From the NCBI GenBank assembly GCA_022825725.1, contig JAJDWE010000055.1:28919-92918 (forward strand): a DNA stretch of 64,000 nucleotides, in the 5' to 3' direction. This document shows positions 9,255 through 20,982 of the stretch, one piece after another. Within the stretch, counting starts at the first letter, position 1; each line of letters opens with the position of its first letter. The position numbers were made by a program, and so were the translations under genes. The notes beneath the pieces are model-generated. The model made no database searches. It saw only the letters and a program-made list of their open reading frames with translations, and was not told where the DNA came from. This DNA is from Gemmatimonadota bacterium (lineage in GTDB: Bacteria > Gemmatimonadota > Gemmatimonadetes > Palauibacterales > Palauibacteraceae).

Positions 9255-10238
9255 CTAGAAGACGCGGACGCGCAGCCAGCGCGACGGGTTGTAGCCGAGA
9301 TCTTCCGCCAGTCCGGCGGCCGCCGTGCGCAGGGCGGCGAGTTGACGTCGGATTTCCTCATCCATCAGCGCCCGGCCCGCCGTTCCCTCGCCGCGGTCCA
9401 GCCGCTCGGTGATCGCCGAGAGTCGCGACATCACCGCGTCCAGCGCCTCGAGCGTCGTTTCCAGATTCTGAACGGCGCTCGCCATTTGGGGCGCGGCCTC
9501 CCAGGTCGCCAGCCGTCCATGCACCCGTCGCGCCGCCGCGCTCACGAGCGTGTCCGTCGCGAGCCCGACGAGCGAGGAGCGCCGAAGGTCTAGCTGGAGC
9601 AGTTCCTCCAGCGACTCGAGACTGCCTTGCAGTCCGGCCAGCGTGCCCGGATCCTCGCGAAAGCGGGCGAGCGAGCCCTGGTCCGAACCAAGCACGTCCC
9701 GCGCCTCGGTGGCGTCGACTTCGAGCGTGCGCACCGCCTGTAGCAGCGAATCCGACAGCGCCATGACCGTCTCCGGATCGATCGGCGGACCGGAAGCCCG
9801 CAGCGTGTCCGCGTAATTCCAGGGGGGCGCGGAGCCCGAGCCCGGGTTCACGGAGAGGACGACGGGCGCCACGAGATCCGATGGCCGGACGTCCGCGGTG
9901 GCATCCGCCCGCAAGATGGGCTCGGCGACCCGGTCGATGACGGCGTCGATGATGACGTGGCTCTCGAACGGCCCATCGCGGTCGCTCTCTTCGGGAGGCT
10001 GGAAAGAGACCGACAGGACGCGCCCCACCGCCCTCCCCGCCACCCAGACCGCGGAACCCGGCCCGAGCCCCTCGGCCGAATGGGCCAGCGCCGTGATTCG
10101 CGGGCCCTCGAGCGTCGCGCGGACGATGAGTTCGATGACGGAGACTGCGGCCGCAAGGACGATCGCGCAGGCAGTCAGGATCAGGCCCCGTCGGGCCCGG
10201 GTGCGCGCGGCGTCTGAAGTGAGGTCCGTTCGGATCAT
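9255..10238 (-). CDS. MlaD/MCE-family protein (outer-membrane lipid asymmetry / Mce domain)
   Basis: N-terminal TM (LILTACAIVLAAAVSVIELIV) followed by an Mce/MlaD domain (RITALAHSAEGLGPGSAVWVAGRAVGRV) and a long C-terminal helical region. Confidence 0.7.
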   Translation of the reverse strand: MIRTDLTSDAARTRARRGLILTACAIVLAAAVSVIELIVRATLEGPRITALAHSAEGLGPGSAVWVAGRAVGRVLSVSFQPPEESDRDGPFESHVIIDAVIDRVAEPILRADATADVRPSDLVAPVVLSVNPGSGSAPPWNYADTLRASGPPIDPETVMALSDSLLQAVRTLEVDATEARDVLGSDQGSLARFREDPGTLAGLQGSLESLEELLQLDLRRSSLVGLATDTLVSAAARRVHGRLATWEAAPQMASAVQNLETTLEALDAVMSRLSAITERLDRGEGTAGRALMDEEIRRQLAALRTAAAGLAEDLGYNPSRWLRVRVF

Positions 10239-10395: not shown

Positions 10396-10764
10396 ATGTC
10401 GAGAACCGTGAACCGGGTCATTCTCGTCGGAAACGCCGGCAGCGACCCCGATGTGCGGGAGACCGCTTCCGGCACCGCCGTCGCACATCTGTCGCTCGCG
10501 ACCAACCGCGTGTTCCGCAAGAACGGGGAGACCCAGCGTCGTACCGATTGGCACCGGCTCACGTTCTGGCGTCGTCAGGCCGAGACCGTCGGCGAGTATG
10601 TGCACAAGGGTTCGCGCCTCTACGTCGAGGGCCACCTCGAGTACGGGTCGTTCGAGCGTGACGGAATCGCGATCCCCACCGTGGACGTGGTCGTGGAAGA
10701 CATGGTGATGCTGGATCCGCGACCGGACGACGCGGCGGCCGACAGCGCCGAACTTCCGCAGTAA
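10396..10764 (+). CDS. ssb: single-stranded DNA-binding protein, short tail-less form
   Basis: MSRTVNRVILVGNAGSDPDVRETASGTAVAHLSLATNR...WHRLTFWRRQAETVGEYVHKGSRLYVEGHLEYGSFERDG is a classic SSB OB fold. The ATG at 10396 was verified and is preceded by AAAGGAGAGG. Only 122 aa, ending ...AADSAELPQ with no acidic DDDIPF tip. Confidence 0.85.
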   Translation: MSRTVNRVILVGNAGSDPDVRETASGTAVAHLSLATNRVFRKNGETQRRTDWHRLTFWRRQAETVGEYVHKGSRLYVEGHLEYGSFERDGIAIPTVDVVVEDMVMLDPRPDDAAADSAELPQ

Positions 10765-10769
10765 ACCTC

Positions 10770-11429
10770 GTGCACCGCGCCACAATCGGCGAGCCATCGG
10801 CGACGCTCGCCGGCGCACTGGAGACCCGCCCCAGGAACGTGCATCTTCCCGTGCGTGGGGCGGGTCCGTCCACCAGCTCGAAGCGGAGGCATCCGATACA
10901 GACACACGATCCGGGGTTTCTGACCCTGTCGAATCTTCTGTCCCTGAGCCGCATACCGCTCGGCCTCGCCTTCATCGTGGTCTCGGACCCCGGCATGATG
11001 GCCGTGCTCGTGGCCACGGCCGGCGCGACGGACGTCCTCGATGGGTTCATCGCCCGGGTGAGCGGAACGCGCTCCCAGGTCGGACTCCTGCTCGACCCGC
11101 TCTGCGACAAGCTCTTCGTCCTGCTCGCTCTCTCCGGCTTCCTGGCGGCGGGCGGGCTCGACGCGGTGTCGTTCCTGATCCTGATCCTCAGGGATCTCTA
11201 TACCGCCGGGTGCTATCTCCTGGCCCGGCTGGTCTCCATCATCATCCCCTTCAGGCCCCGGTGGCCGGGAAAAATCGCGACCGGCCTGCAGTTTCTCACG
11301 CTGCTCGCCCTCATTTTCAACCCTCGGTATGTTCCCGCACTCGTTTTGCTCGTCGGCGTGACGTCGGCATGGGCGATCATCGATTACGGAACTCACTGCC
11401 TCCGGCGGAAGTGGAAGAGCGCGACCTGA
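10770..11429 (+). CDS. CDP-alcohol phosphatidyltransferase (PgsA-like). The true start is probably downstream, near 10900.
   Basis: D-x2-D-G-x2-A-R...G...D-x3-D motif in ATDVLDGFIARVSGTRSQVGLLLDPLCDKL and multiple TM helices. The N-terminal about 45 aa of the ORF are not family-like and overlap a hairpin after ssb. Confidence 0.7.
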   Translation: MHRATIGEPSATLAGALETRPRNVHLPVRGAGPSTSSKRRHPIQTHDPGFLTLSNLLSLSRIPLGLAFIVVSDPGMMAVLVATAGATDVLDGFIARVSGTRSQVGLLLDPLCDKLFVLLALSGFLAAGGLDAVSFLILILRDLYTAGCYLLARLVSIIIPFRPRWPGKIATGLQFLTLLALIFNPRYVPALVLLVGVTSAWAIIDYGTHCLRRKWKSAT

Positions 11430-12482: not shown

Positions 12483-15347
12483 CTAGAGCCGCCGCCCGGC
12501 GAGTTCGACGAGCCGGGCGCCGGATCCCGCGAGGTTCTCCCTCGCCCAGTCTCGCACATCCTCCTCGTGCGTGAATAGGATGACCTGGGTCGAGCCCGCG
12601 AGCGCGTGCAGCGTCTGCAGCACCGCCTGTTTCCGGACCGCGTCGGACGCGCCCACGACATCGTCGAGGATGAGGGGGCAGGTCTCGCCCTCCCGGGTGA
12701 GGTGCCGTGAGAGCGCGAACCTGAGCAGCAGGTAGATCTGCTCCGCCGTGCCGTGCGAGAGCAGTTCGGCGGAGCGCCAGCGCCCCCCCCGCGTCCGGAC
12801 CTCGACGAGCAGATTCTCCGGGTCGATGCGGCATCCGGTGTAGCGGCCGTCCGTCACTCCGGGAAGCCATTCGAGGACCGTCCGCGTCAGAACGGGCGCG
12901 ATGTCGCGCAGCACGCGCTCCTGCGCCTCTTCGAGGAATCCGATCGTGCAGTCCAGCGTGTCCTTGAGACGCGCGATCCTCGCCTGTTCCCGCTCGGCCG
13001 CCGCCAGCGCGTCCTCCGCGTCGGCGACGCTGGGCAGATGGTGCTCACGTTCGGTGAGCTGGCCGCCGGCGCGCAGTACCTCCTCGCGGGCCGCCTCCGC
13101 TTCCCGCCTCAGATTCTCCAGCGTCTCCCCGGTCGGCCGCCCCGCCCGAGCTTCGACGAGGAGGTCCGCCCCGAGCCGGTCGACGAGCCCGCTGGCCCGG
13201 AGGCGGCGTTGCTCCACTTCGTCCGCGAACTCCCCCAGCGTCCGCTCGCCGAGCAACTGTTGCAGGCGATCCCATGATTCGTTGCGTTCGCCGGCTTCCG
13301 CGAGCATCCGCTCCCGGCCCGCGCGCCACTCCTCCAGCGCGGTCGCCAGCTCCTCGGGGTCTTCGGCGGTCACGCCGATCTGCGACCCGGCTTCACGCAG
13401 CTTGTTCACGGCATCATCGGCCCGCTCCGACCGATGTGAGTGCCGCGTCTCTGCCGCCAGGCGCCGAGCCCGTTCGTCACTCCACTCTCGGCGCTGCTCC
13501 GCGGTCCGCCGTTCGAGTTCGTCCAACTCGCTCCGGGTGACGCCCCGGGTCCTCAACTCAGCGAGCGGGGCTCCGGCTGCATCCGCGAGGAGGGCATCGG
13601 CTGCGGCCCGAAGCCGATCCGTCTCGGCGGCAAGTGCGTCGAAGGATGAACCGGCAAGCAGCCCCTGAAGCTCATCCCACTGCGAGCCCCGCCGCGCCGC
13701 CTCTTCCCTTCCGGCCTGCCGGGATGCGGCCTGGCTGCGCAGCGACTCCGCGAGCGCTTCCGGTTCGAGCGAACCCGCGTCCTCCCCGCCGGCGAATTCA
13801 CGGAGGCGGTCGATCGCGTCGCGCCGAGTCCGCAGTTCGGCCTCGTACCGCCTGTGGGCCGAGCGTCCGGTCTCGAGTTCGCGCCGGAGACTGTCGCGCC
13901 GCACGTCCAGCGCAAGCGCAATCTCCGAGCCGTCGGCCCGCGTTCTCGCCAGTCGGTGAGACAGGACGCCTCCCGCTCCGACCGCGAACAGGATCAACCC
14001 CGCGGAGCGCGACTCCGGCCCCAGCAGCGCGAGGACGAGACCTCCGATCGTCACGGCCGCCGAAAGAGCCAGCCACGCCGCGGCTCGCGCGCGTGAACGT
14101 TCCCGGGGGGGCGCCGGCCTCCTCTCTTCGAGATCGGCCAGATCCCCCTCGATTTCCTCCAACCTCCGCCCCGCGGGCCGCTCGACCTCGGAAAGCGACT
14201 CCCAGGCGCGGAGCGCGTCGCGGATCTCCGCCAGGCGCGTGTCCTCCTCCGGGGAAACCCGGGGGCCGCCCTCCGGGAAGAGCGCCTGCAGCTCACGCGC
14301 ACCGGCGAGGCGAGCCTCGACTTCTGCGGCAGCGGCCTCCGCGACGACTGCCCGCGCGGCCGCCAGCGCCGCATCGCCGCCGTCGATCCTCTCCTCGATC
14401 TCTCGCGCCGAGGGCCCCGTCAGCTCCACCGGATCGGGGAGGTTGCGCCACGTCGTGAGCGCTTCGGTGACCGCCCGCGTGAGCCCGCCGCCCTCGGGGA
14501 TCGGGTGGGGCGCCCCCTCGGGGAACGCCTCGTGCAGGGCCCGCGCCTCCCGCAGCCGCTCCGCGTGCCTCTCCGCCTCGGCGCTCGCGAGCGCGGCCTC
14601 CGCCGCCTCCACGCGGTGGCGGGCCTCCCTCGCCGCCCGCTCCAGCGTTTCGACCTCGGCGCGACGCTCCTGAAAGTCCCGGTGCGCCTCGCGGGCCGCC
14701 TCCAGAGCCTTGCGCGCCTCCGCGACCCGCCGCGCCGTCGTCATGAGCGGCTTCGTCGGAGCCCGGGTCGATCCGACGCGTTCCCGGAGAACCTCCTCGA
14801 GCCGCTGCAGCGCGGCGGCCGCCGTCTGGTCCACCCCCGCCGTCGCCGCCGCGCGCTGCATGTCCTCCTGCAGCGATTCGGGGTCGTCCCGGACCCTGAG
14901 GATGTCCGTCTGACGCACACAGGCGGTGGCGAGAAACGAGCGGCGGTTCAGGCCCAGCCACCGCGAGCCGTCCGGTGCCCCGTCGAACAGGATCTCGCCC
15001 GAATAGTCCCGTCCCGCGACGCTCATATCCTCGGCCGAACTCTCGATCCTTCCCGCGAGATCGTGCCTCAATTCCACGCGCCGTCCGTCCTCGAGCGCGA
15101 CGATGGCTCCGATTTCCCACTCGTCGTCGTCCCACGGCCTGTGGCGCTCCGCGAACCGCTTCTCCTCCTTCCGCATCGCCCCCTTGCCACGCCGCATGCC
15201 GCAGAGTCCGGCGTACAGCGCCGCGTGCCAGGACGATTTCCCCGCTTCGTTGCGGCCGAAGACGACGTTCATTCCCGGCGCCAGTTCCAGCGTCTCATCC
15301 CGGAAGGGGCCGAAGCGGTGGGCCGTCACGGACTCGAAGCGCATCAC
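12483..15347 (-). CDS. YhaN/SbcC-like SMC-family AAA ATPase with an internal transmembrane hairpin
   Basis: Walker A GRNEAGKSS at the N-terminus. At the C-terminus, a signature/D-loop region with Walker B LILDDVVGASD and an FTHEED H-loop. In between, a long Ala/Arg/Glu-rich coiled coil interrupted by two hydrophobic helices (AAAWLALSAAVTIGGLVLALLG...GLILFAVGAGGVLS, about aa 423-465). Its start overlaps the stop of the upstream Mre11-like gene (ATGA at 15344-15347). Confidence 0.8.
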   Translation of the reverse strand: MMRFESVTAHRFGPFRDETLELAPGMNVVFGRNEAGKSSWHAALYAGLCGMRRGKGAMRKEEKRFAERHRPWDDDEWEIGAIVALEDGRRVELRHDLAGRIESSAEDMSVAGRDYSGEILFDGAPDGSRWLGLNRRSFLATACVRQTDILRVRDDPESLQEDMQRAAATAGVDQTAAAALQRLEEVLRERVGSTRAPTKPLMTTARRVAEARKALEAAREAHRDFQERRAEVETLERAAREARHRVEAAEAALASAEAERHAERLREARALHEAFPEGAPHPIPEGGGLTRAVTEALTTWRNLPDPVELTGPSAREIEERIDGGDAALAAARAVVAEAAAAEVEARLAGARELQALFPEGGPRVSPEEDTRLAEIRDALRAWESLSEVERPAGRRLEEIEGDLADLEERRPAPPRERSRARAAAWLALSAAVTIGGLVLALLGPESRSAGLILFAVGAGGVLSHRLARTRADGSEIALALDVRRDSLRRELETGRSAHRRYEAELRTRRDAIDRLREFAGGEDAGSLEPEALAESLRSQAASRQAGREEAARRGSQWDELQGLLAGSSFDALAAETDRLRAAADALLADAAGAPLAELRTRGVTRSELDELERRTAEQRREWSDERARRLAAETRHSHRSERADDAVNKLREAGSQIGVTAEDPEELATALEEWRAGRERMLAEAGERNESWDRLQQLLGERTLGEFADEVEQRRLRASGLVDRLGADLLVEARAGRPTGETLENLRREAEAAREEVLRAGGQLTEREHHLPSVADAEDALAAAEREQARIARLKDTLDCTIGFLEEAQERVLRDIAPVLTRTVLEWLPGVTDGRYTGCRIDPENLLVEVRTRGGRWRSAELLSHGTAEQIYLLLRFALSRHLTREGETCPLILDDVVGASDAVRKQAVLQTLHALAGSTQVILFTHEEDVRDWARENLAGSGARLVELAGRRL

Positions 15348-16459
15348 AGCACCTCGAGGTCGTCGCGTCCGTCGAGCGCCCGGAGTCCCATCCGCAGCAC
15401 ACGGCGCTTCTCATCTTCCGCCAACTCCGCTCCCATCACATCCTCGACGAACCGTCCTCTCACGGTGGGCTCCCCGCGGATCTCTTCGAGGTCGTACGCC
15501 AGGTGCAGTTCGGGTTTCCGGATCTGCACGGCGTCGAATGTTTCGAGCAACTGCTCGCGGATCGTGTCCTCCTGGAGGTCGAGCGACGGCTCGAGGTCGC
15601 CGCACACCGTGAGGCGCGCGAGTCCCGCGAGGCTCTCCGTCGTCGCGCGCAGCGTATCCCGGATCTGCTGGCGGCTCGTGAGGCCCGTGACATCGAGCCG
15701 CAGATCGTGAACCGGGGTGACCGCCACGACGCGGCGCTCGCGCGCGACCTCGCCCTCTGCGTCGATCGTCGCCACGACGGGTCCGCGCTCCCCTTCCTCT
15801 CCGAACTGCAGCGGGTCGGGGTTGCCGGGATAGGTGTGATGGGCGCCGTCCGCCGGCCGGTGATAATGGCCGAGGAACGCGTGATTCAGCCCGCTCTCCG
15901 GGATCTCGTCGGTCTCGAAGGGGGCGTGCGGCGCCTTCCCTTCACCCTGTGCCGCGAGCCACGACCGTTCCGCTCCGTGAAAGAGCGCCACGTGCGCCCC
16001 CGCCCCGGAGACGCGGAAGCCGTCGCCGAGGAAGTTGTCCGTGTTGGCGGGAGCGCAGTGCGCGCCCCCCCAGAGCGTGATGCCGGGCGCGAGGGGGACC
16101 GCCTGCAGCGCCGCATCGCGAAAGATGTGAACATTCCCGCTCCATCCCTCTGTCGCGTAGACGCTCGTCGGCCCGTACCAGTCGTGATTGCCGGGCGCGA
16201 TGTAGACGGGCACCGGGTCGAGGGAGGCGAAGGTCTGCCGCAGGAAGTTCGCCGTGTCGAGCGTGACGCGGTCGTGCTCGTACAGGTCGCCGCCGCAGAA
16301 GAGTGCGTCCGCGCCGGTCGAGCGCACGAGTTCCACGATCGCGAGCAGGGTATCGCGAAGCGCCTCGCGCCGCCGCCGCGCCACATCGCCCGTCGCCTCG
16401 CACCACGCGAACGGGGAGTCGAGATGGAGGTCGGCGAAGTGGACGATCGTCCGTTGCAC
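15344..16459 (-). CDS. YhaO/SbcD-like Mre11-family calcineurin-type metallophosphoesterase (nuclease)
   Basis: MQRTIVHFADLHLD (motif I), GGDLYEH (motif II), GNHD (motif III) and GHYH..., in the order typical of the SbcD/Mre11 fold. Translationally coupled to the downstream SMC-like ATPase. Confidence 0.8.
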   Translation of the reverse strand: MQRTIVHFADLHLDSPFAWCEATGDVARRRREALRDTLLAIVELVRSTGADALFCGGDLYEHDRVTLDTANFLRQTFASLDPVPVYIAPGNHDWYGPTSVYATEGWSGNVHIFRDAALQAVPLAPGITLWGGAHCAPANTDNFLGDGFRVSGAGAHVALFHGAERSWLAAQGEGKAPHAPFETDEIPESGLNHAFLGHYHRPADGAHHTYPGNPDPLQFGEEGERGPVVATIDAEGEVARERRVVAVTPVHDLRLDVTGLTSRQQIRDTLRATTESLAGLARLTVCGDLEPSLDLQEDTIREQLLETFDAVQIRKPELHLAYDLEEIRGEPTVRGRFVEDVMGAELAEDEKRRVLRMGLRALDGRDDLEVL

Positions 16460-16461
16460 AG

Positions 16462-17622
16462 TCAGGTGAGAAACGCCTCGATGCGGCCCCAGTTCGCCTC
16501 CGCGTCGGAGGCTCCGAGTTCCACGAGCGCCCGGATGTACTCGCTCTCGAACAGGAGATAACTCAGGAAGTCGGCGGTCTTGATGTCCGGCGTTCCCAAG
16601 CCTCGCACGAGAAACCTGAGCGCCGGGGGAAGTTCGATCTCGAAGTCGCGGGCGAGCTTCCCGATGTCCCGGGAGGGTCTCAGGATGAGCAGGTCGACGC
16701 GGCGCAGACCCTGGCTCTCGGAGACCTCGCGGGGGAGGCGGTCGACGAGGCAGTTGATCCGGCGCAGCGCGGCGGCGTCCCAGTCCAGCGTGTCGAGAAA
16801 GACCGAGTTCAGCAGCAGGCCCAGGACTCTCGCCGGCGGGGGATATCCGGTCGTGTCCGGCGCCCGCGCCTCCAGTTCGGATCGCCGGTAACGGGCCGAG
16901 ATCGTGAAGATGCGGTCCGCCCCCATGTGAATCGCGGGCGCCAGCGGCGCAGCGGTGCGGAAGCTCCCGTCCCCGTAATACTGCTGACCGAGCTTGATGG
17001 CCGGGAACACGAGCGGGATCGACGCGGAGGCGAGGATGTGGTCCACCGAAATGTCCGTCCGCACGAGTCGGTAGTGTGTGCTCGCGCGCCCGGGCCCCGA
17101 CTGCGGTTCGCCCTGCACGAAGAGGACCGTGCGCCCGGTCTGGTACGACATCGCGGTGAGACCGACCGCTTCGAGGTCCCCGGCCCGGATCCGGGCGGCG
17201 ATCTCTCCGCGGCCGACATCGCGCTCGATGAATTCCCGCAGCGGCGACGTGTCGACGAGGCTCTGGAAACGGGGGCTCAGCCCGGTCCCGCCGCCCAGCA
17301 GGGATCCCCCCATCCGCAGACCCACCTTGAGCAGGGAAGCGGGGTTGGTGCGCAGCACTTCCTCGGTCGTGAGCGAGAGCCAGCGGCGCTTCAGTGCCTG
17401 CGTCGCGCCGTGCAGATTTCCGTTGTAGGCGGCGAGGAACCCCACGTTGATTGCACCCGCCGAGACGCCGGTGAGGAGGGGGATCCGAAGCCCGGGCAGC
17501 CGTCTGCCGACATAGCTCAGCACGCCGGTCTGGTAGGCGGCCCTCGCGCCGCCGCCCGAGAGGGCGAAGGCCAGCTTCCCCCGCGCGGCGCCGGAAGCGC
17601 CGCTCCCAGGGGCTCTCGTCAC
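16462..17622 (-). CDS. patatin-like phospholipase
   Basis: Gly-rich oxyanion loop FALSGGGARAAYQTG (GGxR), nucleophile elbow GVSAG (GxSxG) and a catalytic Asp in a DGS/DGG context (YGDGSF). Its stop lies 2 nt from the start of the Mre11-like gene. Confidence 0.8.
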   Translation of the reverse strand: MTRAPGSGASGAARGKLAFALSGGGARAAYQTGVLSYVGRRLPGLRIPLLTGVSAGAINVGFLAAYNGNLHGATQALKRRWLSLTTEEVLRTNPASLLKVGLRMGGSLLGGGTGLSPRFQSLVDTSPLREFIERDVGRGEIAARIRAGDLEAVGLTAMSYQTGRTVLFVQGEPQSGPGRASTHYRLVRTDISVDHILASASIPLVFPAIKLGQQYYGDGSFRTAAPLAPAIHMGADRIFTISARYRRSELEARAPDTTGYPPPARVLGLLLNSVFLDTLDWDAAALRRINCLVDRLPREVSESQGLRRVDLLILRPSRDIGKLARDFEIELPPALRFLVRGLGTPDIKTADFLSYLLFESEYIRALVELGASDAEANWGRIEAFLT

Positions 17623-17635
17623 GCCGGTCCCCGCG

Positions 17636-18181
17636 TCAGGACCGTCCGCCGGGTCGGCCCAGGAGTTGCCGGTGCCAGGAACGGGCCGCCGGCCGCTCGA
17701 GTTCGCCCGCCCGGAGGGCCGCCAACGTGTCGATGGTCGGATCGAAGACGGGAGTCGCGTCGCCGATCGCTCCGGTCAGCGCCCGCGCCCGGAACTCCGA
17801 TCGCGCGCAACTCTCGATTGCGCCGGACTCGTCCCGGTAGAACACGCGTGTGCTGTCGAGAAGCGAGCAGCCCAGGCGTTCCTCGAGCGCGCCCAGCCGC
17901 CGGGACATCGCGTCGATCGAGCACCCGGACGCGGGTGCCGAAGCTTCGTCCACGGCGACGACCGCGAAACGGTCTTCGATCCATTCCACGCCCGCCCGCA
18001 GTGCCGCCCCGTGCGCGGTCCAGATGTCGACGAACGCGCGCAGGTCGACCATCAGCGCTTCGCGCTCCTCGGAGGTCAGCGGACGGTCCGCCCCGTAGAT
18101 CCAGACACGGGCGGAATCCGGAAGCGATGTCAGCGGAACACTCATGTCGGGACCATACGTCGGCCCGCGACCTCCCGCCAA
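17636..18181 (-). CDS. hypothetical protein. The ORF starts with TTG at 18181; an internal ATG at 18145 (MSVPLTSL...) is an alternative start.
   Basis: 181-aa ORF 13 nt upstream of the patatin gene and 25 nt downstream of the ABC permease, on the same strand. No Walker motif or other recognisable motif. Confidence 0.45.
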   Translation of the reverse strand: MAGGRGPTYGPDMSVPLTSLPDSARVWIYGADRPLTSEEREALMVDLRAFVDIWTAHGAALRAGVEWIEDRFAVVAVDEASAPASGCSIDAMSRRLGALEERLGCSLLDSTRVFYRDESGAIESCARSEFRARALTGAIGDATPVFDPTIDTLAALRAGELERPAARSWHRQLLGRPGGRS

Positions 18182-18206: not shown

Positions 18207-19418
18207 CTATTCGTACCGCAGCGCTACGATCGGATCGAGGCTGGCCGCGCGCCGGGCGGGCCAGAGGCCGAAGAACACGCCGACCGCTGCGGCGAACACC
18301 ACGGCGAGGCCGATGGCCTGCGGCGCGATGGCCATCGTCCAGCCCGCCGACCGGGAGAGCATCTCGGCCGCGCCGTAGGCGAACGCGACGCCGAGAATCC
18401 CGCCCGTCATGCAGAGCGTCGTGGCTTCGAGCAGGAACTGGAGCAGGACCGCCTTTCTCGTGGCGCCGAGCGCCTTGCGCACGCCGATCTCCTTCGTCCG
18501 CTCGGTGACCGACACCAGCATGATGTTCATGATCCCGATGCCCCCGACGAGGAGGCTGACCGCGGCGATCCCGGCGAGCAGCATCGTGAACGTCTGTGTC
18601 GTCTCCTGCGCCATTTCGAGGAACTGCACGCTGTCCGAGATCCAGAAGTCGTTCTCCCGTCCCAGGGGAAGGCGGTGCTCACGCCGCAGCACGTCCTCGA
18701 TCTGCACCATCGCAACGGGGATCGCGGCCTCACTCTCGACGACGACCTTGAACTGGCTCACGCGATCGGTCCCGAGCAATCGGAACTGCGCCGTCTCCAG
18801 CGGGACGAAGATCTGCTCGTCCTGGTTGAACCAGCCCGATCCGCCCTTTTCTTCCAGCACGCCCACGACTTCGAAGGAGATGTTCCGGATGGAGATCGTC
18901 CGGCCGACGAGTTCGGCGGCGTCGGTGTTCAGCACCGCCGGGACCGCGCCCCCGAGCACGGCGACGCGCCGCCGGCCGCGGTCCTCGGATTCATCGAAGA
19001 AGCGGCCGAGCTGAAGCGTGTGATTCTCGACAGCCGCGTAGTTCGGCGTCGTACCGAGAATCCGTACGCTCGCGTTGTTGCGTCCGAACTGGACCTGCAA
19101 CTGTCCCTGCATCTCCGGGGCGACCTCCACGAGGGCCGGGGCCCCCCGCCGCACCGCTTCGACGTCTTCGGTCGTCAACCGGGCGTTCGACCCGCCGCGC
19201 ACGCCGCGGAACATCCCCTGCCCGGGGCGGACCGTGAGCACGTTGGTGCCGAGAGACTCGATCTGGTTCTCGACCTGCCGCTGGGCGCCCTCCCCGAGGG
19301 CGACCATCGTGATCACGGCGCCCACTCCGATCACGATCCCGAGCATGGTCAGGAAGGAGCGCAGCTTGTTGGCGCGGATCGCATCCATCGCGACCCGGAG
19401 AATCTCGAAGAAGATCAT
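18207..19418 (-). CDS. ABC transporter permease, MacB/FtsX family (permease only)
   Basis: N-terminal TM (LRSFLTMLGIVIGVGAVITMVAL), a large periplasmic MacB-PCD-like domain and a C-terminal FtsX 3-TM bundle (TMLLAGIAAVSLLVGGIGIMNIMLVSVTERTKEIGVRKALGA...). 403 aa with no nucleotide-binding domain. Confidence 0.8.
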   Translation of the reverse strand: MIFFEILRVAMDAIRANKLRSFLTMLGIVIGVGAVITMVALGEGAQRQVENQIESLGTNVLTVRPGQGMFRGVRGGSNARLTTEDVEAVRRGAPALVEVAPEMQGQLQVQFGRNNASVRILGTTPNYAAVENHTLQLGRFFDESEDRGRRRVAVLGGAVPAVLNTDAAELVGRTISIRNISFEVVGVLEEKGGSGWFNQDEQIFVPLETAQFRLLGTDRVSQFKVVVESEAAIPVAMVQIEDVLRREHRLPLGRENDFWISDSVQFLEMAQETTQTFTMLLAGIAAVSLLVGGIGIMNIMLVSVTERTKEIGVRKALGATRKAVLLQFLLEATTLCMTGGILGVAFAYGAAEMLSRSAGWTMAIAPQAIGLAVVFAAAVGVFFGLWPARRAASLDPIVALRYE

Positions 19419-19425
19419 CGGATCA

Positions 19426-20982
19426 TCACCCTCCCCCGATGCCCGGCAGCCCCGACCGGCTGCGGATTCGGTCCAGGAACTCCTGCTGCGCGATGAGCGA
19501 GGTGGGCACTGCGACGATCTCCTCGCCCTCCTCGAGTCCGCGGACGATCTGCGTGTGATCGAAGTCGCTGAGGCCGATCATGACGGGCTTCACGTCGAGG
19601 AGGCCGTTCGCATCGTACCTGAACACGAAGGCCGGGCGGGGCTCGTCGGGCCGCCGCGCCGGGCCGCCCCGGCCGCCCCCGGGTCCGCCGCCTCCCTGGT
19701 TGCGGAACTGCTGCATCATCCGCCGCCGCTCCTCGTCGGACATGTTCTGGAAGACCCGCATCCGCTCTTCCTGCGACATCGACTGGAACTCCGACATCGG
19801 AACCCCGCCGATCATCGCCTCCTCCTCGCCCTCCGCCGCTCCGTCCTCCGCCGCACCCTCCGGCCGATCCTGGCTCTGGAAGTCGCGCAGCAGCGCGTTG
19901 ACATCGGCGTCGATCTCGAGGGCCCGGACGATCTGGGCGGCCTCCTGCTGGGACTTGATGCCGCTGTTCGCCACCGCGAGCACGTCCTCCTGCCGCCCGA
20001 TCACGACTTCGACGTCCGCGTTCATCCCCGGCCGCAGCAGGTCCTCCTCGTTCGAGATGCGCGTGAGCACGGCGAACATGGTCACGTTTTGTTCGACCAC
20101 CGCCTGCGGTTCGATCTTGAGGACGGACCCCCGGAAGGTCCGGTTGGGATACGCTTCCACGGTGATGTCGGCGGGCAGTCCCGGCTGGAGCCGCCCGATG
20201 TCCGTTTCGTCGACGAGCATGCGCACCTGGACCTCGGTGAGGTCGGCCATCCGCATCAGCACGGTTCCGCCGGTGAGGTCGCGCGTCCCCGTGACGACCT
20301 GCCCCTGTTCCACCGTCCGCTCCACGATGGTGCCCGTGATCGGGGCCCGGAGCGTCACGTCGTCCAGCTTGTCCTCGGCCAGTTCGAGGTTGGTCGTCGC
20401 GCGGACCAGTGAAGCTCTCGCGTTCGCCGCCGAGAGGATCGCGCTCTCCAGCTCCTCCGAGGTCACGATATCGGACTCGTGGAGCGCTTCCACCCGCTCA
20501 AGCTGGCGTTCCGCGACATAGGCCTGGGCCTCGGCCACGTCCAGATCGGCCTGCGCCTGGGCGTGCGCGTTGTTCACGTCGCGCGGGTCGATCCGCACGA
20601 GGAGCGTTCCCAGTTCGACGTTGTCCCCGAGTTCGACGGGTAGCTGGAGAACCTCGCCTCCCGCCTGCGACTTGACCTCGATCACGCGGATCGGTTCGAC
20701 CGTCCCGGTCGCCTCGACGCTGGAGACGATGGTCTGGCGCCCCGCGGTCAGCGTTTGGAGTGTCTGCTCGGGTTCGTTGGCCTCGCCGGTCGCACAACCT
20801 GCGACCGCGAGTCCAAGCGCCGTGAGGACCGTGGCGTGGCCCGGGGAACCGCCTCGCAGGCGGGGGCGACGCCGGCAGCGTTCGAATATGGACATCGGAA
20901 TCTCGTCTCGTGTCGGGTCCGTGAAGGGCCAGCGGGGCGGCGAAACCGCGCCGTCGTAGCACGCTGAGAGGACACCCCGCAC
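19426..20982 (-). CDS. efflux membrane-fusion (periplasmic adaptor) lipoprotein, MacA/HlyD family
   Basis: Lipobox LGLAVAGC near the N-terminus (a likely start is the Met at about 20895). Coiled-coil hairpin, lipoyl/β-barrel regions and a C-terminal membrane-proximal domain (FVFRYDANGLLDVKPVMIGLSDFDHTQIVRGL). An unusual Met/Gln/Arg-rich and Gly-rich insertion lies before the C-terminal domain. Confidence 0.75.
   Translation of the reverse strand: MRGVLSACYDGAVSPPRWPFTDPTRDEIPMSIFERCRRRPRLRGGSPGHATVLTALGLAVAGCATGEANEPEQTLQTLTAGRQTIVSSVEATGTVEPIRVIEVKSQAGGEVLQLPVELGDNVELGTLLVRIDPRDVNNAHAQAQADLDVAEAQAYVAERQLERVEALHESDIVTSEELESAILSAANARASLVRATTNLELAEDKLDDVTLRAPITGTIVERTVEQGQVVTGTRDLTGGTVLMRMADLTEVQVRMLVDETDIGRLQPGLPADITVEAYPNRTFRGSVLKIEPQAVVEQNVTMFAVLTRISNEEDLLRPGMNADVEVVIGRQEDVLAVANSGIKSQQEAAQIVRALEIDADVNALLRDFQSQDRPEGAAEDGAAEGEEEAMIGGVPMSEFQSMSQEERMRVFQNMSDEERRRMMQQFRNQGGGGPGGGRGGPARRPDEPRPAFVFRYDANGLLDVKPVMIGLSDFDHTQIVRGLEEGEEIVAVPTSLIAQQEFLDRIRSRSGLPGIGGG

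Follow-up and report, generated by a model that had tools for sequence, protein, structure and literature searches.

A predicted membrane hairpin at the zinc-hook position of a Rad50/SbcC-like ATPase from Candidatus Palauibacter and its YhaN/SbcE relatives

Introduction

Current models of the tethering and processing of DNA ends give the apex of the Rad50/SbcC ATPases a central place, and an ATPase of this type that carries no zinc hook raises the question of what occupies its apex instead. Here we address this question for a gene of Candidatus Palauibacter (Gemmatimonadota) located in a stretch of 64,000 nucleotides (GenBank assembly GCA_022825725.1, contig JAJDWE010000055.1, positions 28,919 to 92,918 of the forward strand), to which we refer as the window and to which all coordinates below belong unless another locus is named. 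The gene (12483-15347) encodes a Rad50/SbcC-like ABC ATPase of the YhaN/SbcE type and lies on the minus strand, as do all the parts of the protein described below, the SbcD-like gene that precedes it (15344-16459) and the two genes upstream of the latter. A first-pass annotation of the window had noticed a hydrophobic hairpin in the middle of the ATPase and had taken it for a peculiarity of this one gene. We find that such a hairpin is actually standard across a very large family, and we consider it likely that the ATPase and the SbcD-like protein, as members of the YhaN/YhaO (SbcE/SbcF) family, form a complex of the Mre11-Rad50 type that is tethered to the membrane.

Results and discussion

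A Rad50/SbcC-type ATPase without a zinc hook

The start of the ATPase gene is ambiguous, the GTG at 15347 yielding a protein of 954 amino acids (aa) and the ATG at 15344 one of 953 aa. The ATG form is that of the public gene calls and agrees with the homologues, which start with MRFESV, and an identical 953-aa sequence from Candidatus Palauibacter (Gemmatimonadota) is present in public collections under the name 'AAA family ATPase'. The protein matched AAA_27, AAA_23 and SMC_N in Pfam, with the AAA_27-type P-loop domain at the N-terminus (PF13514, E = 9.4e-10) exceeding the gathering score and being precomputed for all the homologues too, and it also gave partial matches to the Rad50 and RecF models of NCBIfam, a match to the 'SbcC-like' family of PHROG and matches to Rad50 heads in the PDB that aligned to aa 826-936. 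The AlphaFold2 model obtained with 61 homologues as input (mean predicted local distance difference test score, pLDDT, of 79) has a beta/alpha head at both termini and segmented helices between them, from aa 200 to 831. Foldseek comparison of this model with the PDB retrieved Smc5/6, Rad50 (7zr1, E = 1e-13), MukB, JetC and LmuB.

The head is split between the two ends of the protein, as delimited by motifs and invariant columns together with the model for the N-terminal half and the PDB alignments for the C-terminal one. The N-terminal half (aa 1 to approximately 200; 14748-15347) includes the Walker A motif GRNEAGKS (aa 31-38) and the Q-loop VRQ (aa 144-146), while the C-terminal half (aa approximately 800-954; 12483-12950) includes the signature LSHG (aa 863-866), the Walker B motif LILDD (aa 892-896) and the H-loop FTHE (aa 925-928). 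Two homologue alignments showed all these ABC motifs to be invariant across the family, including both Asp residues of Walker B (12660-12674), the second position of this pair being occupied by Asp in place of the usual catalytic Glu. Charged residues make up 34% of the protein. Five Cys are present in total and no CxxC motif occurs anywhere in the sequence, which bears out what the first-pass annotation had stated; in the homologues examined CxxC was likewise missing from the midpoint. The protein is a Rad50/SbcC-type ABC ATPase that lacks the zinc hook.

The gene directly upstream (15344-16459, 371 aa) encodes an SbcD/Mre11-type metallophosphoesterase, as indicated by Metallophos in Pfam, a partial match to TIGR00619 (sbcD), SbcD/Mre11 structures in the PDB and the 'SbcD-like' family of PHROG. 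Its motifs are intact (DLH10, GGD56, GNHD90, LFHG159 and GHYH197), and the public gene call names the product only 'metallophosphoesterase'. The TGA stop codon of this gene (15346-15344) overlaps both possible starts of the ATPase gene within the junction GTGATG (15342-15347), which points to translational coupling of the two genes. A scan of the operon for promoters and terminators gave no signal above shuffled controls. To place the pair in a wider context we scanned one genome per species and obtained 79 loci from Gemmatimonadota, Chloroflexota, Acidobacteriota, Actinomycetota, Gammaproteobacteria and Spirochaetia, 76 of them with a full-length ATPase. The SbcD-like gene was directly upstream of the ATPase gene in every one of the 79 loci, and clustering of the neighbouring open reading frames (ORFs) revealed no other conserved neighbour across them.

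A hydrophobic hairpin at the midpoint of the protein

At aa 421-464 (13956-14087) the ATPase contains two uncharged helices separated by the turn G-P-E-S-R. Helix 1 (aa 421-444; 14016-14087), AAAWLALSAAVTIGGLVLALLGP, is predicted to span the membrane from its hydropathy, the model and its conservation. It comprises 23 uncharged residues and has the highest Kyte-Doolittle mean over 19 residues in the whole protein, 2.18, as compared with a protein mean of -0.56 (standard deviation 0.77). Its summed biological-hydrophobicity value lies between -0.8 and -1.2, and its G436 is nearly invariant in the two homologue alignments. A tight turn follows, P-E-S-R-S (aa 444-448; 14004-14018), which a membrane-spanning hairpin would expose on the outer side of the bilayer, and then helix 2 (aa 448-464; 13956-14006), SAGLILFAVGAGGVLSH, delimited by its hydrophobicity sum and the model. 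Both flanks are rich in Arg (RRPAPPRERSRAR on the N side and HRLARTRADG on the C side), and AlphaFold2 also builds a helix-turn-helix here, with helices at aa 420-441 and 447-467. The hairpin of the first-pass annotation is thus real: the peptide it quoted corresponds to aa 422-463 (13959-14084), the positions it gave (13953-14081, for aa 423-465) are accurate to one or two residues on what is the minus strand (translating the plus strand here gives no meaningful product), and its short turn and Arg-rich flanks are present in the sequence.

Could such a segment appear by chance in a protein of this composition? Among 20,000 composition-preserving shuffles of the ATPase, a window of 44 residues as hydrophobic as the hairpin appeared 13 times, and a 17-mer as hydrophobic appeared 124 times. 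Any remaining doubt about chance is removed by the conservation of the hairpin across phyla, to which we now turn.

The hairpin is a family trait with membrane-type statistics

Hairpins were scored in the proteins of the 79 loci as two hydrophobic 17-mers located at the midpoint and 2-12 residues apart. A midpoint hairpin was found in 58 of the 76 full-length proteins from the six sampled groups. Among 120 close homologues the hairpin and a conserved P-D/E turn are kept down to approximately 43% identity, and the hairpin was present in all of 120 homologues from Clostridia, which a search with a Monoglobus homologue had retrieved and which bear no other name than 'AAA family ATPase'. A profile search of 1.84 billion representative sequences yielded 1,590 clusters (50% identity) with E ≤ 1e-30, and analysis of the best 150 of these cluster representatives, whose lengths range from 553 to 1367 aa, showed a double hairpin by a crude criterion in 129, while most of the 16 scored as having one helix were mis-registered hairpins.

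The 129 hairpin-bearing representatives served for the sequence statistics that follow. As an alternative to a membrane hairpin, the apex could be a soluble dimerisation hinge, in which two hairpins form a buried four-helix bundle in place of the zinc hook and away from any membrane. The uncharged span has a median length of 44 aa (interquartile range 42-46), and Lys plus Arg number 3.9 per 15 aa in the N-flank and 3.5 in the C-flank, approximately twice the background of 2.0, as against 0.36 within the span. The N-flank is poor in acidic residues, and Trp and Tyr form a belt where helix 2 ends (frequency 0.084 versus 0.024 in the background). These are membrane signatures, none of which is required by a soluble bundle. 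In many homologues the insertion sums of the helices are strongly negative, down to -3.7. The composition of the span, 39% of which is Ala and Gly, does favour the tight helix-helix packing that such a bundle would involve. Taking both sides together, we regard the soluble hinge as unlikely. The turn varies between 2 and 12 residues across the family and has a central Pro or Gly in 122 of the 129 proteins. Judged on these sequences, the hairpin is an apex trait of the whole family and its flanks obey the positive-inside rule; the features of the Palauibacter protein fit a membrane hairpin with both ends in the cytoplasm (N-in/C-in), in agreement with the membrane-anchored apex that the first-pass annotation had predicted.

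That the hairpin occupies the apex, where a zinc hook would be, follows the proposal of the same annotation and is apparent from its position between two arms whose lengths covary. Its relative position is 0.474 ± 0.017 of protein length for proteins of 553 to 1367 aa, and the lengths on its N- and C-terminal sides are strongly correlated (r = 0.93, slope 1.55). The arms of the Palauibacter protein are tandem repeats and not plain coiled coil. BLASTP and the model identified two repeats of approximately 80-85 aa in the N-arm (aa 248-332 and 330-410; 14118-14606), which are 38% identical to each other (E = 8e-13), and BLASTP identified two of approximately 110 aa in the C-arm (aa 510-621 and 645-755; 13083-13820), with 34% identity (E = 6e-15). 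The length classes of the family (553-1367 aa) differ from one another by the paired gain or loss of apex-proximal repeats of the N-arm and the C-arm, as predicted for an antiparallel arm tipped by a hairpin.

Relationship to SbcE/SbcF and to Rad50-Mre11

The ATPase is an ordinary and typical member of the large and little-studied YhaN/SbcE family, since helices of membrane type at the apex are the normal design in this family. We judged membership by the AAA_27 domain, the SbcD-like gene upstream, the missing CxxC and the hydrophobic, Pro-containing centre, and all of these, together with the SbcC-like ABC ATPase fold and long arms, are shared with SbcE/SbcF (YhaN/YhaO) of Bacillus subtilis as described in the literature. 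Firmicute relatives also carry the hairpin at the midpoint, among them a Clostridium protein (P0333) and the 701-aa ATPase of Monoglobus (L081), with helices at 338-362 and 365-389 and a metallophosphoesterase gene adjoining, and some plasmid relatives bear the PGAP label 'YhaN family protein'. The YhaN-type architecture named by the first-pass annotation is supported. The Palauibacter locus differs from that of B. subtilis in having no yhaM-like neighbour.

The published work on SbcE describes a 'unique central domain', the first half of which is hydrophobic, with a conserved proline, and which was insoluble (PMC2811018). Roles of SbcE/SbcF in double-strand-break repair and in transformation were reported in the same work, together with polar foci in competent cells (PMC2811018). 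These properties all fit a membrane anchor, although the insolubility of the central domain (PMC2811018) is also compatible with any exposed hydrophobic surface, including that of a soluble hinge. With such roles described for a relative, the view of the first-pass annotation that the functional meaning of the architecture is unknown is too strong.

The pair also resembles Rad50-Mre11 and SbcC-SbcD, to which it has sequence and fold matches and with which it shares an ABC head split between the termini, antiparallel helical arms and a partner of the Mre11/SbcD type. The ATPase differs from Rad50 and SbcC in the absence of a zinc hook, in its hydrophobic hairpin apex, in having D-D and not D-E in Walker B, and in arms that are built of repeated helical modules and to which the N- and C-terminal sides contribute unequally, as the slope of 1.55 given above reflects.

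Our search of the literature for YhaN/SbcE, Rad50-like or COG4717/AAA_27 proteins in connection with membranes turned up only the 2009 SbcE paper, in which the central domain is never called membrane-spanning (PMC2811018), and neither SbcE nor a membrane comes up in the reviews and papers found that deal with SMC-like proteins. We would accordingly call the apex of the family, as a membrane element, under-appreciated rather than new, its mechanism never having been analysed. The modular arms, as well as the amphipathic-helix clade presented in the next section, are additional observations for which we found no earlier description.

Other states of the apex

A sister clade of the hairpin-bearing proteins, mainly from Chloroflexota, has at the same apex position a single cationic amphipathic helix rich in Phe and Leu, for example GLFATLFRAIRAVFAALFRLFGGGR. 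This helix has no acidic residues and shows Arg on one face and Phe and Leu on the other; its hydrophobic moment is 0.52-0.60. The clade includes L018-L024, L034, L036-L038, L070 and L077 of the species scan, with the apex at approximately aa 410-445, and P0085, P0088-P0091, P0099, P0103, P0135 and P0175 of the cluster representatives. We dropped the hydrophobic moment alone as a criterion because coiled-coil segments give similar values, so that the amphipathic assignment rests on composition. Membrane-targeting amphipathic helices are carried by MinD and FtsA, and the apex helix of the sister clade is like these in being cationic and amphipathic. It differs from them in its internal location, which is the tip of a coiled arm, and in its membrane binding being putative, whereas the helices of the MinD/FtsA type are C-terminal. 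We read the sister-clade helix as a possible peripheral membrane anchor, in which case membrane association, beyond dimerisation, would be the property of the apex under selection. A hydrophobic bundle is a possible alternative for this helix, and bundling of this kind would also suit the soluble hinge.

Several points weigh against the membrane reading, some of them concerning the Palauibacter hairpin itself and others the family assignment. Helix 2 is rich in Gly and Ala and only marginally hydrophobic (sum +3.8), as the soluble hinge would allow, and its equivalents in many homologues have sums of 0 or below. The turn of this protein contains two charged residues, E445 and R447, and the confidence of AlphaFold2 across the hairpin is modest (pLDDT approximately 60). 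Membrane topology was assessed by hydropathy proxies, the hydrophobicity sums being calculated on a simple additive scale. The replacement of the catalytic Glu in Walker B means that the kinetics of the ATPase may differ from those of Rad50, and the assignment to YhaN/SbcE rests on the described features and on the Firmicute relatives rather than on an alignment to B. subtilis YhaN. Finally, a 'YhaN family protein' of 1154 aa encoded by a Sphingomonas paucimobilis plasmid (L080) has neither a hydrophobic apex nor CxxC. This protein represents a third state of the apex in the wider family, and the hairpin is therefore not universal in the wider superfamily. In the plasmid locus (1661-6432 of L080) a 'DNA repair exonuclease' pairs with the 1154-aa protein and a gene for a GIY-YIG nuclease lies downstream.

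A proposed membrane-tethered Mre11-Rad50-type complex

Placing these results into a model, we propose that the chain of the ATPase doubles back and brings its N- and C-terminal halves together in one ABC head, with the repeat-built helical arms running antiparallel to each other. At the site of the zinc hook, the apex would consist of two helices of approximately 20 residues and a turn of 2-12 residues with Pro or Gly, inserted into the cytoplasmic membrane. The hairpin would have both its ends in the cytoplasm, this being the sole possible topology for a spanning hairpin because a single head can form only if the two arms come back to the cytoplasmic side. The Gly/Ala-rich helices of two protomers would probably pack against each other in the bilayer, and membrane insertion would in this manner replace the zinc-mediated dimerisation of the apex. 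The heads, with the SbcD-like nuclease, would hang in the cytoplasm, where ATP-dependent binding and processing of DNA ends by the complex may take place near the membrane.

A bolder version of this proposal, which we put forward only tentatively and hold to be less probable than not, is that the membrane does the job of the zinc hook in a membrane-mounted sensor and nuclease of DNA ends which is tuned by arm length in the manner of a ruler, and to which the patatin of Palauibacter, described below, could couple as an add-on. The apex of such a ruler would be either a spanning hairpin or an amphipathic helix lying in the plane of the membrane, and arm length would be set by the paired repeat modules. 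DNA would then be surveyed at a fixed depth below the envelope, whether transforming, conjugative or phage DNA or breaks close to the membrane.

A family in which the hook has given way to a hairpin or to an amphipathic helix offers a natural, ready-made test of the purpose of the apex, and it points to a possible class of DNA-end processing fixed at the cell membrane. This widespread family of 1,590 clusters is annotated just as 'AAA family ATPase', and its partner as 'metallophosphoesterase'. We see in it a variant of Mre11-Rad50 that has been neglected and that is of mechanistic interest.

The patatin gene and the genomic neighbourhood

Upstream of the SbcD-like gene, with a gap of 2 nucleotides (nt) to its start, lies a gene for a patatin-like phospholipase of 386 aa (16462-17622; Pfam Patatin), whose catalytic motifs GGGAR, GVSAG and DGS are intact. 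Upstream of it there is an ORF of 181 aa (17636-18181) with no significant family in Pfam, NCBIfam, PADLOC or PHROG and only a sub-threshold match to HTH_1. The tight linkage of the patatin gene would fit a role of the locus in defence against phages or plasmids, in which the membrane-bound SMC-like ATPase would sense incoming DNA ends at the envelope. Degradation of these ends would fall to the SbcD-like nuclease, and the patatin would act in Palauibacter as an abortive-infection effector. SMC/Rad50-like ATPases do serve as sensors in Lamassu, Wadjet and Gabija, a membrane location would suit the sensing of injected DNA, and the ATPase is structurally similar to LmuB and JetC, with which it shares the SMC-like head and arm fold. 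It also gave weak, partial profile matches in PADLOC to mad3 (1.3e-16), LmuB (9e-12), GajA and PtuA.

The distribution of the genes argues against this interpretation. The patatin gene was found in all of the 15 Candidatus Palauibacter loci and in none of the 64 others within 8 kb on either side (tblastn; hmmsearch --max), so that homologues with the hairpin occur without patatin outside this genus. The 181-aa ORF is likewise kept in all 15 Palauibacter loci, at 74-98% identity, and in no other locus, and all the flanking genes are also conserved across these 15. The link to patatin is hence one of synteny at the level of the genus, given that the two are adjacent only there. Elsewhere the homologues stand among unrelated metabolic genes and not in defence islands, the SbcD-like gene being the one conserved neighbour; no LmuA/LmuC or JetA/B/D partners accompany the ATPase, and the defence proteins of the LmuB/JetC type have no membrane apex. 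The PADLOC matches, like those in NCBIfam and PHROG, are limited to the generic ABC head. Viral contigs contain essentially no members of the family, having given just two weak matches, both N-terminal, and the evidence from B. subtilis indicates repair and competence (PMC2811018). A role in defence appears to us improbable on this evidence. The patatin gene lies outside the conserved module and is not a component of the ATPase/SbcD-like system, and its eye-catching proximity should not be read as such.

The surroundings of the locus in Palauibacter include further genes related to the envelope. The genes for an HlyD-like protein (19426-20982), MacB (18207-19418), the 181-aa ORF, the patatin, the SbcD-like protein and the ATPase form a run on the same strand with gaps of 2-25 nt, and MlaD (9255-10238), a CDP-alcohol phosphatidyltransferase (10770-11429) and SSB (10396-10764) are encoded nearby. 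This run and the lipid-related genes near it would be expected if the ATPase worked with the patatin, MacAB, MlaD and the phosphatidyltransferase on the envelope, in membrane or lipid homeostasis, and not on DNA. Such a machine is very hard to reconcile with a head that is Rad50/SbcC-like and with a sole conserved partner that is a nuclease of the SbcD/Mre11 type with intact catalytic motifs, and the lipid-gene neighbours are restricted to one genus, the arrangement between 9255 and 20982 being conserved only within Candidatus Palauibacter. We give it very little credence, and we retain the membrane-tethered complex acting on DNA as the most probable function of the pair.

Several side observations concern other loci of the family. 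Several of the closest relatives from other phyla (Dehalococcoidia, Caldilineaceae, Vicinamibacterales and Azotimanducaceae) have names that suggest metagenome-assembled genomes associated with sponges or corals, and they show up to 65% identity to Palauibacter in the head domain. This may be a sign that the family has spread horizontally in holobiont communities. Two pieces, of 171 and 63 aa, make up the SbcD-like gene in L014/L082 (6893-8001 of that locus), and the ATPase is truncated in L042, L045, L048 and L055, these copies being either pseudogenes or the product of frameshift errors in long-read assemblies.

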